The notes: generated by a model from the letters alone, not told the origin. Counted from the first letter of the stretch, positions 56,581 to 63,966 are shown. The stretch is DNA of 64,000 bases from an uncultured Gemmatimonadales bacterium (GCA_963844035.1 CAWJMT010000004.1:64001-128000); one strand, 5' to 3'. A program made the numbers and translations.

Positions 56581-57618
56581 ATGACGCCAGAGCCTTCCCC
56601 CTCCCCCCTTCCCTCGTCCCCGCCTTCGGGCGATGTCGAGCTACTGGAGCGGCTTGCGACCGCCCGGACCGACCTGCTCGCCCAGGTGGGGCGCCGGATC
56701 GTCGGCCAGCAAAGCGTGCTCGACGGGATCCTGACCGCCATTTTCTCGGGCGGGCACGCCCTGCTGCTCGGCGTGCCCGGGCTGGCCAAGACCCTGATGG
56801 TGCAGACGGTAGCGCAGGCGCTGGAGCTCAAGTTCTCCCGGATCCAGTTCACCCCCGACCTCATGCCCTCCGACATCACCGGCACGGAGATCATCGAGGA
56901 AGACACGACCACCGGGAAGCGCGCGTTCCGGTTCGTGCGCGGCCCGGTGTTCGCGAACATCGTCCTGGCCGACGAGGTCAATCGCACGCCGCCCAAGACC
57001 CAGGCCGCCCTGCTGCAAGCGATGCAGGAGCACCAGGTGAGCGCCGCGGGGCAGACGCACCTGCTGCCGGCACCGTTCTTCGTGCTGGCGACCCAAAACC
57101 CGATCGAGCAGGAGGGCACCTACCCGCTCCCCGAGGCACAGCTCGACCGTTTCATGTTCGAGCTGCGGGTGGGCTATCCCTCGAGGGAAGAGGAAGAACG
57201 CATCGTCGAGACCACGACGAGCGACCTGTCGGCGCACGTGCAGCCGGTGCTCACCGCTGAGGACGTATTGGCGCTGCAGCACCTCGTGCGCCGGGTGCCG
57301 GCGCCCAAGACGCTGGTCCGCGCGGCAGTAGCGTTGGCGCGCATGACGCGGCCCACCGACGCCGACGCGCCGGCCTTCATTAAGGAATACGTCGCGTGGG
57401 GTGCCGGCCCGCGCGCATCGCAGTATCTCGTGCTGGGCGCCAAGGCGCGCGCGGCCCTCGACGGCCGCCCGTTAGCCGACTACGACGATCTGCGGAGTGT
57501 GGCATCCGGGGTCCTGACCCATCGGTTGGTGATCAACTTTGCGGCCGAGGCTGCGGGACGCTCCGCGGCGGACATTGTTGAGGACCTGCTCAAGGAGGGC
57601 CGGTGGCTCGCCAAGTGA
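56581..57618 (+). CDS. MoxR-family AAA+ ATPase
   Basis: [50 protein letters not shown]. Confidence 0.96.
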
Positions 57619-58146: not shown

Positions 58147-61100
58147 TTGCGAGATGACCCTTTGGCTGCGCACCTCCTCCTGTCCACGCTCGGCGCGCCG
58201 CTTCTGTTCGCCAGCTCCGGCGAGCCCGTCAGGTTCCGCACCCGGAAGCATTTCGCGCTCTTGATCAGGCTCGGCCTCGAGAGCGGGCGTCGTTTCAGCC
58301 GCGACTACTTGACCGACCTGCTGTGGCCCGACGCGCCGGCCCGGCAGGCTCGCCACTCGCTCGCTCAGGCCCTGTCGGTGGTGAGGGCCAAGGTTGGGGC
58401 GGAGCATCTCCTCGTGCAGAAGGCCACGGTCGCGCTCGTCGCGGGCGCGGTGGACGTAGACGCGTGCCGCCTGGGCGACGGCCCGGCGGAGGTCCGGGGG
58501 CCCTTCCTTGAAGGGTTCGAGATTCCTGGTGCACCCTCGTTCGAGCAATGGAAGGACGAGTGGCGCGCCAAGCTCACGCCGCGGATCCGCGATGCCCTGG
58601 TGAGACAGATGGACGGAGGGCGGCGCATCGGGGATTTCGCAACCGTCGAGCGCTACGCCCAGGTGTTGTACGAGCTCGACCCGCTGTCGGAGGACGCGGT
58701 GCGAGGCCTGATGGAAGCACGCGCCTGGGCGGGAGACCGGCTCAACGCCTTGAAGATCTGCGCACGGTTCGCGGCCCAGCTCGAGGAGGACTTGGGAGCA
58801 AAGCCGAGTGCCGACCTCGCCCGCATGGCCGCGCTGCTGCGCGAGGGCCGCAGCTCGCTGCCGCGGCAGCCTGACGGCAACGGCGTTCAAACTGGGCCGG
58901 CCGGGCCGGCGCGCCACGAGCGGCGCTTCGAAGCAGAGACGCTGATCGGCCGCGAGACGGAGTTCGCGGTCCTGTACGACAATTGGCTCGAAGTGCGACA
59001 GCGCCGGCCGCGCGTGGTCGTCGTGACCGGGGATCCCGGGATCGGCAAGACCACGCTCACCAACGCATTCGTGTCGACCTGTCAGATGGAGGGGGCGGTG
59101 GTCGCGCGCGCTCAGGCGTATGACGCGGAGCGCGAGCTGCCCTTCGCCGTGCTGGCGGAGCTGGTGCGCCAGCTCGCCCTCCAGCGCGCCATCGGCAGCG
59201 CCGATCCGGACGCGTTGAGCGAGCTGGCGCGCATCGCGCCCGCCGTGTTCGACGCGTTCCCTGGCGTTCCCAAGCCGGTTGACTGGGCGGCCGAAGTGAC
59301 TCCCCTGCGCCTGGCCGACGCCTTTCTCCGGACGCTCGCGGCGGCCGGCGACGAAAGTCCCGTCATCCTCGTGGTGGACGACATCCACGCCGCCGACAAC
59401 GCGAGCGCCGCGATCCTGCACCTCGTGGCTCGGAAGCTCGAGGGCACGCGGCTGCTCCTGGTGCTGGCGGGCCGTTCGAGCGAGCTGCGGACCGCCACGG
59501 CACCGGGCGAGCTGGTCTCCGATTCCTCGACGCAAACCATACAGACGCTTGAGCTTGAGCCCTTGGCACCGGACGCGCTGGAGCGTCTCGCGGCCGCGAT
59601 CGCGTCCAAGGCGGGAGGCACCATACAGGATCTCCCCACCCAACGCATCCTCCGGGCGGCGAACGGCAACCCGCTGGCGCTCGAGCTGCTCACGACGGAG
59701 TGGCTCGCGCACGGGTCGACGTCCTTGCTGGCCGATCTTGGAGGCGCTGAACACTCGCCCGGTGGCGAACATCGGAATCCCGCGCGCGATCGGCGCGGTG
59801 TTCGAGCGCCAGATCCGGCGGCTGCACGCGTCTGCGCGGGCGGCGCTCGATCTCGCGGCGGTGTTGGGCCGCCGGCTCGTCGACTTGCCGCTGTACGACA
59901 TCGTGGGCCTGTCGCCCGCGGCCGCGGGGGAGATGCTGTCGCGATTGCGCGAGGAGGGTTTTCTCCGGGAGATCCACGGTGGGCTCGAGTTCCGGAATGA
60001 GCTGATACGGGCGCAGGCGTACTACGCGGTGGCCGGACCGGCGCGGCAACATCTGCACCGGCGCGTTGGCACGCTGTTGGCCGAGCGGCCGCCTGAGGAT
60101 CGGCAGTCGCTCCAGCTGGAGATCGCGTGGCATTTCCTGAGGGGGGGTGATGGAGTCCTTGCGGTCGTCTACGGATTGGTAGCGGCCGAGGAAGCGATGA
60201 GGATTGGCGCTCCCTATGAAGCACAAGAGATTCTCCAGGCACTCATCCACGAGCCGAAAGCCGAGACACACACCCTACGAATTCAATTGTTGGCCGCGCA
60301 GGCCCTATTGGAGCAATCCAAGGCACAAGCAGCGCTCGACGCACTTAGTGGCCTGGAGAATGTGACCGGAATCACGCCGCCCGTATCAGCGGAGGTCGCC
60401 AGGATGCGCGCGACAGCGCGATATCTGATGAACGAAGGTCCCCCACAAGGGTACGTCGAGGCCGCTCAAAGGGCGCTGATCGCCGCAAGGGAGGTCGGCG
60501 ATCCGGAAATACTCTCCCGAGCACTCTTCGAGTGTGCAAGAGCTGGAGCGGAGGCGGGAGACGAAGCTCTAGTCCTTGAGGCCCAAGCAGAGATCGAACA
60601 TCTCCAGAGTCAACCCGAGGCCGCAAAACTGCCAACCCTGCACTATGCCCAAGCGTTTTGCAGTTCCTTCGTCTTTGAACCCGCGCGTGCGGCCGACTCA
60701 ATGGAAGTTGCCCTGAAACTCCTGATTCCTGATGGTAACCCTAGCGAACTGTCATTCGCGTACAACGGATACGCAAACTGCAAGCTGCAACTCTGTGAGT
60801 TTGAATTGGCCCGCGAGGCGTACGGAAGGGGCCTTGAGTTGGCAAGGAAGGTAGGTGACGACTCTCGAGCGTCGGTGGTCGCGGGAAATTTGTGCGGTGT
60901 GCTCTCGATGATGGGGGACTATTCAGCCGCTGTGAGGGTGGGAGAAGATGGCGTTCGATTTGGTGTCCGATGTCCTAGCCAGCCAGTCCTGATAACATGC
61001 TTCACTAGTTTGGCTGAGGCCCACGCCCTCGCCGGTGACAAAATTCGCGCGATTGACAGTCTTAAGGAGGCACAGGAGTGGCTTCAAAGGAGGCAGAGCT

Positions 61101-61507
61101 GGTCAGCTAATGTTGAGTTCCTCTGTCAGAAAGCGCTCATCGCCCTGTTGATGGGTGACCTGGGCTTGGCTCTGGACACTACGGCCCTGGCGGAAAAGGC
61201 TGCGTGGCGCAGAGAACGAACGGTACCAAACCCTGGAATCCTGGCCAAGCTCCGGATCATGCGAGCGGCCCACGTTTCTGGCTTTGAGTCCGCCTTCGCT
61301 ATCGCGCAGGACGCCATGGCGAGGTTCTGTGGTCACCACCCGTTACATTCTCTCGCGGTGTCGACAGCGATAGTGTGGGTGGAGAACAATGCCGGATGCT
61401 CGCATTCGACCGAAACCCAGAAAGCACTGCAACGTCTCGAAATGCCGGAGTTGCGAGGATATAGAGCCATGCTTACAGCCCAAGGGTTCTTGGCGCAGCG
61501 GGCTTGA
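58147..61507 (+). CDS. Large SARP-type regulator: wHTH-BTAD + STAND/AAA ATPase + TPR-like sensor, frameshift ~59740
   Basis: LSTLGAP, RDYLTDLLWPD, GPFLEGF, DPLSE; Walker A GDPGIGKT, Walker B VVDDIH, GNPL; helical TPR-like C-terminus. Confidence 0.9.
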
Positions 61508-61641
61508 TCCCGTTCCAGGCCCCGTCACCCTTTTTGCCCCGCCCAAGGACCCGCCAATCCACACTACGGCCAAAGTCCCTCAAAGATTATGCGCGACGAC
61601 TAGTGTTGGGCTGCTGGCGGGCAGGTCCGTCGCCTCTTCCT

Positions 61642-63015
61642 TTACGGAATAGGAACGCCTTGCTCCACTGTCGCCCGGGGTTGTCTAGAGGCAGTCGCCC
61701 GCTCGAATGCCGCGGGTCCCGATCGGAATGCGGAAGGAGACGCCTTCGCAACCACGCGACGGATTGCAATCGACCTATTCACTATGTCGGCAATTCTGGG
61801 GTCGAATTGCTTACCAGAGTACTTACGAATCTCCTCAAGCGCTCGGTCAAACGGAAGGGCTTTTCTATAAGGGCGGTCCGTTGTCATCGCATCGAGAGTG
61901 TCTGCCACCATTATGATACGTGCGCCCAGAGGAATTCCTTCGCCCGCGAGGCAGTCCGGATAACCCGTACCGTCAAAGTTCTCATGGTGGTGGCGAACCG
62001 CCTTCTCGATCGGGCCCCGCAAACTCGAAATCGTGGTGACGAGCTCAGCGGACCTCACCGGGTGGGTCTGAAGCAGCGCCTTCTCCTCAGGAGTTAGCCT
62101 ACCCTCCTTGTGAAGGAGTGGAGCGTACTCCTCGTATACTTTGCCAACGTCATGTAGCAACGCAGCAGTGGCAATCTGCTCGACCTGTCGGACCCCAGCC
62201 CCAGCTTCCTTTGCGAGAATTCGCGCGTACTGCGACACGCGCTGCGAATGACCCGACGTGTAGGGATCGCGGGCTTCGATTTGCTTGACCATCAACTCAA
62301 GGAGTTCACGACTCGCCTGTTGTAGCCGAAGGTTCTGTACGTAGACATGTCGAACAATGAAGAGAGGAGCGGCGAGAGCAACCACACCACCAAGCTCCCA
62401 CCGTACGTACATGTACGCCAACACGGCTGGCACTGGCGTGACAAAGAGGTCGTAGACCGCAGAACCGCCGAAGAGCCGGGCCCAAGCCCCAGTAAATCCT
62501 ATGCCCTCAGCCAAAGAAACGACAAAGCTCACAGCGGTGGAACTCGCCACGGCGTACGCCAGGGCGCTCAGAAACACCGCGACAGGTACGAACTCGAACT
62601 CGTATAGGGAAGGGGTGCCTCCAAAAAATCGATAGACCGATGCCGCGAAGCCCAGGGACAGGATTTCCTTGGATGAGTTGAAAACAACCTTTATCCAGGG
62701 CTTCTTCCGAATCAACAGGTCTGCGGTGAAGAACGTTGCCCCACCTATCGCCATTGCCCAGAATGGGCCGAAGAGGAATATGGCAGCGAGGAACGGGATG
62801 AATGCGACCGACATGGTGGCAGTGCCAAGTTGAACGCTGACAAAGCTCATCTCAGCAGCCAAGGCAACTGCAACTATTGCAATAAGACCGTTTGAGAACT
62901 TGCTAGACCAATCCCAGACCTCGCCGTTGCCCGCCACAACCATTGCGACAACAGCGCCGCAAGCGATTGCGGACACGCAAAACTTTAGGAGACGTGATCT
63001 AGTAAGGACGTCCAT
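61642..63015 (-). CDS. Multi-TM membrane sensor fused to HD-GYP cyclic-dinucleotide phosphodiesterase
   Basis: ~7-8 hydrophobic helices then EARDPYTSGHSQRV, LLHDVGK, HHENFDGTGYP, ADTLDAMTTDRPYR; GAGGTG RBS. Confidence 0.93.
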   Translation of the reverse strand: MDVLTRSRLLKFCVSAIACGAVVAMVVAGNGEVWDWSSKFSNGLIAIVAVALAAEMSFVSVQLGTATMSVAFIPFLAAIFLFGPFWAMAIGGATFFTADLLIRKKPWIKVVFNSSKEILSLGFAASVYRFFGGTPSLYEFEFVPVAVFLSALAYAVASSTAVSFVVSLAEGIGFTGAWARLFGGSAVYDLFVTPVPAVLAYMYVRWELGGVVALAAPLFIVRHVYVQNLRLQQASRELLELMVKQIEARDPYTSGHSQRVSQYARILAKEAGAGVRQVEQIATAALLHDVGKVYEEYAPLLHKEGRLTPEEKALLQTHPVRSAELVTTISSLRGPIEKAVRHHHENFDGTGYPDCLAGEGIPLGARIIMVADTLDAMTTDRPYRKALPFDRALEEIRKYSGKQFDPRIADIVNRSIAIRRVVAKASPSAFRSGPAAFERATASRQPRATVEQGVPIP

Positions 63016-63061
63016 CTACCAGCACCTCAAGAGTGCGAGAGAGGGTGGCCCCAAGCTGTCG

Positions 63062-63142
63062 TTACCAACCTACCGAGATGTTTGCCATCAGAACGCGGAC
63101 GACCGCGCCCAACAGCAACGCGAGCAGCTTTAGCGCAAACAT
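63062..63142 (-). CDS. Unannotated 26-aa hydrophobic peptide MFALKLLALLLGAVVRVLMANISVGW
   Basis: AGGAGGT 8 nt before ATG (63142), TAA at 63062-63064, 46 nt upstream of the HD-GYP gene on the same strand. Confidence 0.75.
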   Translation of the reverse strand: MFALKLLALLLGAVVRVLMANISVGW

Positions 63143-63365
63143 AGAGCGTCACCTCCTCACGGGGCCTACGAGACTTGCTCGATAGACTTGGAGTGGCACG
63201 CCTCGCTATGGCGTACCCGACGCTCCGCTCCTCAGCTTTTCGCTCGGCTTCGCTCGGGCAACTACAACCCGGGGCCCCTTCCCTCCTTCTCGTTCACAGT
63301 TCGCAACGTGTTTTGCCCAGCGTGCCAGCTTGCGCACGAGGGTGGGAGAAGAATCGTTGCTACGC

Positions 63366-63966
63366 CTACGCCGCCTTCCGCCTCCGCAACGCTTGGCGCA
63401 CCGCGTCAATGACCGCCGAGACGCCGTCCGCCTTGTTGACGATTGTCCTGCACACCGAGTTTGCGCAGCCGCTCTTGATCCTCGACCTCGATGCCGCCGG
63501 TGATGACCAGCAGCTCGGCGGGGAGTTTGCGCCCCGGCTCGAGCAGTCGCTCGATGATCTGCAGGGCGTTCAAGTCCGGCAACCGGTAGTCCAACGCGAT
63601 CAAGGCCGGGCGCACGCGACCGATGGCGATCAACGCGTCCACGCCGTTCGTCACCTTCACGACGTCCAGACCCAGATCCGCCTTCTCGATCAACCGCGAC
63701 AGCGCCTCGAGGTACGTCCGATCGTCGTCCACCAGGACCATCACGTCCCGCGCGACGGCCTCGTGGAGATCCGACGGCACGCCCATGTCGTGCGCTCGGA
63801 GAAAATTCACGAGCTCGCTCACCTCGACCCGCCGCCGACCCGTGGGCGTCTTGTGACCGCTCAAGAGCCCCTGATCGATCCAGTTTGCAACCGTCGCCGG
63901 CGACACCTGACAGGCGCGGGCCACCCGCTGGGTGCCCCAATAGCGCTTCGTACGTGGCGTATTCAC
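63366..63966 (-). CDS. Response regulator with N-terminal excisionase-like HTH (HTH-REC), frameshift ~63450
   Basis: VARACQVSPATVANWIDQG..KTPTGRRR; LVDDD, LDYRLPD, ITG, frame-corrected IVNKADG..RRRKAA*. Confidence 0.85.

Follow-up and report, generated by a model that had tools for sequence, protein, structure and literature searches.

The subject of this analysis is a regulatory locus near the right end of a 64,000-nucleotide stretch of DNA from an uncultured Gemmatimonadales bacterium (GCA_963844035.1, CAWJMT010000004.1:64001-128000; this whole stretch is called the window), where two convergent genes share a tract that appears to be a hypervariable cassette of exchangeable sensor modules. 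The conserved left flank is a MoxR-type AAA ATPase gene (56581..57618, plus strand; Pfam AAA_3, 210.9 bits; GC content at third codon positions, GC3, 0.88) that is 80-88% identical in ingroup relatives. It is followed on the same strand by a large regulator gene, which comprises an N-part with a weak winged helix-turn-helix (HTH), a BTAD domain and an AAA_16/STAND NTPase (frame 1, 58147..59739; GC3 0.86), a conserved middle part ending ...EIAWHFLRGGD (frame 2, 59741..60150; GC3 0.81-0.89) and a putative tetratricopeptide repeat (TPR) sensor, the first variable module (60151..61507; TPR_12; GC3 0.55-0.69). A spacer between convergent stop codons (61508..61641), itself within the variable tract, separates the regulator from an HD-GYP gene on the minus strand. 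Upstream of the HD-GYP gene, and also on the minus strand, lie a gene for a 26-amino-acid hydrophobic peptide (MFALKLLALLLGAVVRVLMANISVGW; 63062..63142) with a strong ribosome-binding site, a conserved leader predicted from alignment and consensus folding to act as RNA (63144..63230), and a gene for an HTH (MerR/HTH_17-like) and receiver-domain regulator, HTH-REC, which forms the conserved right flank (63406..63966; Pfam; GC3 0.82). Between HTH-REC and the leader, conserved GAGCG direct repeats and a GGGGCCCC palindrome (63246..63278, minus strand) may be a regulator-binding site or a terminator.

Within the regulator, Pfam recognizes the BTAD domain (PF03704, 41.2 bits against a cutoff of 22.1; residues 89-229) and the NTPase domain (AAA_16, 82.5 bits, cutoff 32.6; nSTAND1, 27.6 bits, cutoff 27.1), the latter with a Walker A motif GDPGIGKT and a Walker B-like ILVVDD. 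Matches are weak for the N-terminal winged helix (Trans_reg_C, 20.0 bits, cutoff 26.2) and for the TPR part (TPR_12, 30.0 bits, cutoff 30.1). Compared by sequence with the PDB, the TPR part returned generic TPR matches alone, weak ones to LGN/Pins TPRs (E = 5e-5), and its best full-length match among 5.8e9 proteins, restricted to those of 803-2290 amino acids, is 52% identical. In this assembly one extra base at 59,738 (plus strand) splits the gene into frames 58147-59739 and 59741-61507. Related regulators read through in a single intact frame, and one contig in each of the runs X1, X2 and X3 lacks the extra base, those of X1 and X3 being ~96% identical to the window; runs X1-X4 cover the stretch incompletely, in short contigs, and are uninformative for the parts they leave uncovered. 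The frame break is thus private to this assembly and would represent either a pseudogene or an assembly error. An earlier reading of the window, the sequence-only reading, had the open reading frame of the regulator continuing across a shift in base composition. The frame 59549-61507 is indeed open there, but the gene is split ~410 nt upstream of the shift.

The product of the convergent gene (61642-63015, minus strand) is assigned, by domains and motifs, as a predicted MASE9-HD-GYP phosphodiesterase. Its catalytic domain (residues 233-457; 61642..62319; HD_5, 131.2 bits) carries the motifs HD at 288, HHE at 343 and GYP at 351, and its membrane sensor domain (residues 1-232; 62320..63015) matches the MASE9 profile PF20972 with 26.9 bits (cutoff 24.3) over residues 46-218. 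Mean pairwise identity is 48% in the MASE9 part and 68% in the catalytic part, so that MASE9 is the most variable part of the second module, and the protein exists in two deep types. Among 400 genomes of the family searched for a closer species, the nearest HD-GYP match is 75% identical.

Base composition changes abruptly across these genes. From 60,150 to 63,250 the GC content of the window drops from ~0.70 to 0.55-0.60, a dip of ~3 kb; the 1-kb bins spanning 60001-63000 have values of 0.564-0.598 and the remaining 61 bins 0.632-0.733, and genome-wide 207 of 6882 1-kb windows (3%) fall below 0.60. Third codon positions carry the drop when GC3 is taken by gene part: regulator GC3 is 0.83-0.90 up to ~60,040 and 0.55-0.69 from there to the stop codon, the HD-GYP gene has 0.55-0.68, and HTH-REC is at 0.82. 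The sequence-only reading had placed the start of a low-GC tract inside the regulator gene, and a return to host-like GC by HTH-REC, on the basis of hand counts of 45 G or C in 60 nt at 59101-59160, 30 at 60721-60780 and 31 at 62641-62700; the counts are exact, and the binned GC and the GC3 values agree with both placements.

The dip is shared by relatives. We compared 101 loci, namely the window, 20 loci from species-representative genomes and 80 metagenome contigs, the relatives being Gemmatimonadetes metagenome-assembled genomes (MAGs) by their source names. Mean GC3 was 0.86 in the regulator N-part (n = 93 loci), 0.64 in TPR (n = 72), 0.65 in HD-GYP (n = 59) and 0.89 in HTH-REC (n = 41). 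Within Gemmatimonadota, GC3 in TPR is at least 0.10 lower than in the N-part in 66 of 68 loci, all but L081 and L112, and HD-GYP GC3 lies below that of REC in 40 of 40; five more distant loci, a second family of the order included, likewise show the dip. Such constancy of place argues that the dip is old and not a recent import. Low GC had been taken as the sign of a swap, and here the earlier reading must be corrected: throughout the order, every allele has it as a lasting feature. In two loci, L124 (G182:C2:210000-222000) and L112, low GC3 spans the entire regulator, TPR included (N-part GC3 0.60-0.63), so the dip has no fixed left edge.

The composition step coincides with a step in sequence conservation. 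When 14 full regulators are aligned by codon, mean amino acid identity (0.70 to 0.38) and GC3 (0.86 to 0.64) shift jointly at 60,050-60,230, which is far from the uniform divergence that the sequence-only reading had named as the outcome contradicting it. Eight proteins match the window at 83-86% identity in the N-part and at 87-92% in the conserved middle but at 41-43% in TPR, where they are 74-83% identical among themselves; conversely, the proteins closest to the window in TPR (48-53%) are only 61-72% identical in the N-part. P0031 and P0009 are 100% identical up to the junction and 47% beyond it, in TPR; the left half of P0031 is also identical to that of P0012. Across pairs of loci with N-part identity of at least 88%, TPR identity ranges from 30 to 100%. 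The pair L079/L087 is 99% identical in the N-part, 35% in TPR, 73% in HD-GYP and 95% in REC, and L044/L047 is 99, 60, 75 and 98% identical in the same segments; L062/L068 (N-part 99%, TPR 48%, HD-GYP 52%) and L043/L049 (98, 38 and 62%) follow the same course up to HD-GYP. Close pairs regain 91-98% identity in HTH-REC, giving the predicted profile, in which identity is high in BTAD/AAA, falls in the intervening segments and is high again in HTH-REC.

Phylogenies of the segments conflict accordingly. In the left-half regulator tree the window falls into an 8-row clade (SH-aLRT 99) and in the TPR-half tree into a different 11-row clade (support 99), and an approximately unbiased (AU) test on the TPR half rejects the left-half grouping (log-likelihood difference 106, p = 1.6e-4). 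The trees of the AAA and TPR halves are thus not congruent, congruence being the second outcome that would have spoken against an exchange. In G130, the regulator N-part groups with those of G118, G169, G009 and G096 (support 98), and the HD-GYP protein is of the other deep type and groups with that of G152 (support 100; AU p = 2e-52). These trees were built with a 'quick' search, the AU-test groups were taken from the tree of the other segment after the identity tables had been seen, and the close clade of the window is represented by three short metagenome contigs and protein records only.

Breakpoints recur at the same places. Nucleotide similarity of the window to L040, L041 and L042 (blastn; 81-83.5% over up to 5.7 kb) ends at 60150, 60151 and 60152; a contig of run X1 is 96.1% identical over 58200-60152 and then continues unlike the window, a contig of run X3 ends at 60146, and close pairs with 97%-identical flanks of 5-8 kb break at residues 106-132 of the middle part, which correspond to 60,056-60,136. 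The left border therefore lies at 60,056-60,152, inside the regulator gene. On the right, junctions in close pairs fall +45 to +98 nt from the HD-GYP start, which puts them within the peptide gene or at its end, and in G130 versus G118 at +225, in the leader. These alignments place the right border in the peptide gene or leader (~63,060-63,240) and mark the leader as the apparent right recombination anchor.

A further class of pairs differs in TPR alone. G020/G109 are 79% identical in the N-part, 35% in TPR, 80% in HD-GYP and 79% in REC, L100/L102 are 92, 36, 95 and 91% identical, and L109/L115 likewise differ in TPR only. In G020/G109 similarity is back at the 3' end of HD-GYP, so the right border of TPR-only swaps is in the spacer at 61,508-61,641. 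The combination of TPR identity of at least 75% with HD-GYP identity below 80% occurred in 0 of 1035 pairs, a pattern consistent with a TPR module that moves alone or along with HD-GYP. The sequence-only reading had sensor domain, membrane receptor and peptide exchanged together by recombination in conserved flanks; a hypervariable block with its left border in the regulator is borne out, but not its exchange as one unit, since there are two modules, TPR is replaced alone in the three pairs just named, and the same peptide occurs with unrelated TPR classes.

Assemblies of relatives also break here, in loci L003 and L013-L035 and in metagenome loci L045-L119. Of 27 genomes, 17 have a contig end within the locus, where 8.1 would be expected (simulated P ~1e-4, with rounded contig counts and a span picked after the data had been seen), and many of the metagenome loci break off between residues 48 and 138 of the regulator's conserved middle, several at 103-138. 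Breakage in a conserved segment is what co-occurring alleles would cause.

Silent sites bear on the age of the alleles. Pairs with the same allele have dS(TPR) of 0.12-0.53 against dS(N) of 0.13-0.87, and dN/dS of 0.10-0.19 in TPR against 0.06-0.15 in the N-part; these ordinary within-class values argue against both hypermutation and relaxed selection. In different-allele pairs, by contrast, silent sites of both variable modules, TPR and HD-GYP, approach or reach saturation (pS 0.75-0.83), with dS of 0.02-0.24 in the N-part and 0.04-0.18 in REC. For L089/L092 the N-part dS is 0.02 and both TPR and HD-GYP are saturated; for L044/L047 dS is 0.05 in the N-part, 0.04 in REC and 3.2 in TPR, and HD-GYP is saturated. 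Among pairs with N-part pS below 0.3, HD-GYP pS exceeds 0.6 in 14 of 24 and TPR pS in 13 of 23. Single-linkage clustering at identities of at least 70% (TPR), 80% (HD-GYP) and 88% (N-part) yielded 41 TPR classes from 72 sequences, 26 HD-GYP classes from 57 and 27 N-part classes from 90, and a single N-part class includes up to 6 TPR and 4 HD-GYP classes. No paralogous or silent donor copies were found in the same genome, where the TPR part matches itself only.

The small peptide gene that the sequence-only reading had called is present, and a homologous small open reading frame lies upstream of HD-GYP in all 21 relatives' loci examined. A motif search located the peptide in 46 of the 101 loci (many of the remaining contigs stop before the gene), with 36 distinct sequences, 29 distinct tails and a final W in 40 of the 46. 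The variable tail falls inside the cassette and the 5' part of the gene in the conserved flank. Of 25 pairs with identical tails, which are not independent of one another, 21 agree in HD-GYP class and 16 in TPR class. No NCBIfam model reaches its cutoff at the locus, and nothing in that collection matches the peptide.

As an RNA, the leader is predicted to conceal the ribosome-binding site from which the peptide would be translated. It is nearly invariant over ~40 nt in the alignment, and in the consensus fold GAGCGUC pairs with GACGCUC, located between the ribosome-binding site and the start codon, and CUCC pairs with the ribosome-binding site itself (63151-63158). An 8-bp hairpin shows compensatory changes. 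Pairing holds in 98.4% of cells versus 36-54% with slid partners, and the covariation score was reached by 0 of 500 shuffles; pairs with changes on both sides number 2 only, two helices being almost invariant. The leader model R1 matches 64 of 151 genomes of the order (one copy in 62, two in 2), distributed as 49/61, 13/27 and 1/62 in families f1, f3 and f2, respectively. A scan of 61,400-63,500 with Rfam gave no family and a single chance-level hit (E = 3.1).

Saturated modules between 97%-identical flanks, normal rates within classes, conflicting trees and shared breakpoints together point to ancient alleles shuffled by recombination. By this evidence the tract is a standing set of old sensor alleles, exchanged at conserved anchors. 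We consider it probable that the locus holds an ancient hypervariable two-module cassette moved by homologous recombination at conserved borders between near-identical genomes, which would likely confer strain-specific signal specificity on a cyclic di-GMP (c-di-GMP) circuit. The first module is the putative TPR sensor of the BTAD/STAND regulator and the second the peptide tail with the MASE9 membrane sensor and the HD-GYP domain, and each occurs in dozens of deeply diverged allele classes. Balancing selection through a rare-type advantage may maintain them. Recognition would be determined by the variable surfaces, namely TPR, MASE9 and the peptide tail. An identical peptide stands beside unrelated TPR classes, which makes it an unlikely specific ligand of TPR; MASE9 and the peptide tail would be the likelier cognate pair, with TPR as a second, separate input. 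Low GC3 could then be a by-product of weak recombination between classes or of a smaller effective population size per class: with little recombination between split classes, GC-biased gene conversion or weak codon selection would, we propose, be less effective. The fuller picture that these steps compose, in which soil Gemmatimonadota signal over private channels with components not known to serve that purpose, a leader-controlled micro-peptide tail is read by the co-inherited MASE9-HD-GYP protein, an independently swappable TPR sits on a STAND activator, dozens of alleles are kept over very long times by rare-type advantage, and a GC3 deficit of ~20 points is the footprint of weakened GC-biased conversion, is put forward tentatively, as a possibility that may well prove wrong.

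Several observations weigh against this interpretation. The evidence comes mostly from MAGs and metagenome contigs, in which chimeric joins at conserved anchors can arise. The window itself is an awkward exemplar: its regulator is frameshifted, and its HD-GYP looks vertically inherited, being 82-83% identical to P0051, which is paired with an 85%-identical regulator, P0033, by inference and not by linkage. The same cassette on a distant background is rare, TPR identity of at least 75% with N-part identity of at most 80% occurring in only 1 of 2278 pairs, so that donors would be mostly unsampled; silent divergence well below that of the N-part was found for HD-GYP in 3 of 1176 pairs and for TPR in 1, the strongest of the three HD-GYP cases being L043/L055 (HD-GYP pS 0.02 against N-part pS 0.40) and the other two weaker. 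As for the signal, an identical peptide accompanies unrelated TPR classes (L100/L102; the DATIHW tail occurs with 3 TPR classes), the link between peptide and MASE9 is indistinguishable from plain adjacency, and the block, which holds the TPR part, HD-GYP and the peptide gene only, has no gene for peptide processing or export.

The alternative that survives best concerns function: the variable TPR could be a conflict sensor for phage or foreign-cell proteins, its alleles kept by an arms race rather than by private signalling. Like this regulator, fungal NLRs and bacterial STAND conflict systems combine a STAND NTPase with highly polymorphic sensors of TPR, WD or ANK type, as far as the consulted portions of PMC4986451 and PMC7159879 describe them, and the adjoining MoxR gene and the many allele classes would fit such a role. 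Compared with what those portions report, whole old alleles are replaced here, without shuffling of near-identical repeats or retroelement mutagenesis, and the output domain is a DNA-binding transcriptional activator with no killing effector. PADLOC gave no system match, its matches at 13-29 bits being to generic P-loop, HD and HTH models; the locus is single-copy, syntenic and core, lies among c-di-GMP genes, and is under purifying selection within classes. We regard a conflict sensor as possible but doubtful.

Divergence in place, through a mutation hotspot, relaxed constraint or diversifying selection, with AT-biased mutation lowering GC, is improbable. TPR identity does saturate at 32-45% between most lineages in a star-like tree, donors are rarely seen, and MASE9 is more variable than the catalytic domain, all of which such a process would produce. 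Against it, dS(TPR) is about equal to dS(N) within classes, with dN/dS of 0.10-0.19, and pairs with N-part dS of 0.02-0.10 jump directly to saturation at the same sharp borders, no graded intermediates between classes being seen among pairs with close flanks. Neither the step in P0031/P0009 from 100% to 47% at the junction nor the close HD-GYP of L043/L055 on diverged N-parts is what a local process would leave.

We give equally little credence to the mosaics being assembly artefacts, in which the flank of one strain was joined to the cassette of another at conserved anchors. The frequent contig ends in the locus, many at residues 48-138, and the nearly invariant ~40 nt of the leader offer an opening for such joins. 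Such joining would, however, be expected to place near-identical cassettes on distant backbones, which are almost never seen (the 1 pair in 2278), and the same pattern appears in long contigs where 97%-identical flanks extend for 5-8 kb to either side, in dip-carrying genomes assembled into 4-20 contigs (G042, G092, G022) and in protein clusters seen repeatedly (P0031, 43 member sequences). The least credible alternative, a recent horizontal import, confined to this genome, in which a lower-GC donor supplied the 3' part of the regulator along with the adjacent gene, finds a semblance of a junction in the sharp GC3 step at 60,150 but is ruled out by the conservation of the dip in relatives, other families of the order included, and fits poorly with a locus in whose examined gene context no mobility genes were found and which lies between core genes, with ATP synthase to one side and GcvT, OTCase and a Clp-like ATPase to the other.

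Just beyond the window, on the minus strand, lie a GGDEF cyclase with an FeS domain, a ferredoxin/Fe-hydrogenase-like gene and then a sigma-54 activator. The first two (L120:2817-4512, minus strand, equivalent to G000:C4:128816-130511, G000 being the genome of the window) look like a redox-sensing source of c-di-GMP beside the HD-GYP gene. Elsewhere in G000, further low-GC tracts of at least 3 kb, several of them at contig ends, occur at C1:1-3000, C2:1-8500, C3:248501-252500, C10:19501-29000, C14:64501-73000, C20:11501-15000 and C22:1-16500. On the contig of the window but outside it, C4:412001-455500 is a 43.5-kb stretch of 28.5% GC without any N that terminates a 455-kb contig in a genome of 67% GC; a chimeric join, a contaminant and an AT-rich element are candidates.

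If the variable surfaces of the two-module cassette set specificity, the locus would represent strain discrimination of the pherotype kind in a soil phylum that is abundant but hardly cultured, coupled to c-di-GMP turnover and a STAND activator and not to a two-component kinase. It is also a clean natural test of what determines GC3 in high-GC bacteria, with flanks at 0.86-0.89 and the cassette at 0.64-0.65 across an order despite one chromosome and one mutation process. In practical terms, metagenome assemblies break at the locus, which might be useful for telling strains apart.

Parts of the system resemble known ones. MASE9-HD-GYP proteins of the same architecture have been described, with ligand binding by MASE9 within the membrane suggested (bioRxiv 10.1101/2021.11.05.467447); in the portion of that preprint consulted, an upstream peptide gene, a leader and allelic exchange are not mentioned, and 'Gemmatimon' occurs 0 times in its main text. 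A literature search found no published description of the cassette. Large SARPs of the AfsR type in actinomycetes consist of BTAD, NTPase and TPR, and STAND activators of the MalT type are related in layout. By Pfam, the regulator has the same order of DNA-binding/BTAD domain, P-loop NTPase and C-terminal helical-repeat sensor; unlike those proteins, it has no sequence match to a solved structure of that kind and no NCBIfam model at cutoff, and its sensor comes in a set of exchangeable alleles with low GC3. RRNPP receptors (Rgg/SHP, ComR/ComS, PlcR/PapR) respond to short hydrophobic peptides as polymorphic receptor-peptide pairs. As in that family, a TPR receptor fused to a DNA-binding domain stands beside a gene for a 20-26-amino-acid hydrophobic peptide with a variable C-terminal tail, but here the regulator includes a STAND NTPase, the peptide does not follow TPR class, and its gene is in an operon with HD-GYP behind a structured leader.

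The closest parallel is with the pherotype regions agrB-D-C of staphylococci and comQXP of Bacillus, which are hypervariable, hold discrete old alleles and have borders inside genes. The block described here differs from them in lacking a processing enzyme of the AgrB or ComQ type, in having a MASE9-HD-GYP phosphodiesterase and not a histidine kinase as the membrane partner, in including another module that is swapped independently, namely the TPR part of a STAND regulator in the cytoplasm, and in its phylum. The likeness rests on genes and alleles, signal and specificity being putative here: in both cases conserved flanks enclose a hypervariable block whose borders fall within genes, which takes in a small peptide gene together with the sensory portion of a membrane protein and which exists as discrete old allele classes within one species-level group. 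In both, too, the phylogeny of the block is incongruent with that of its flanks (on pherotype regions, see PMC4408185).

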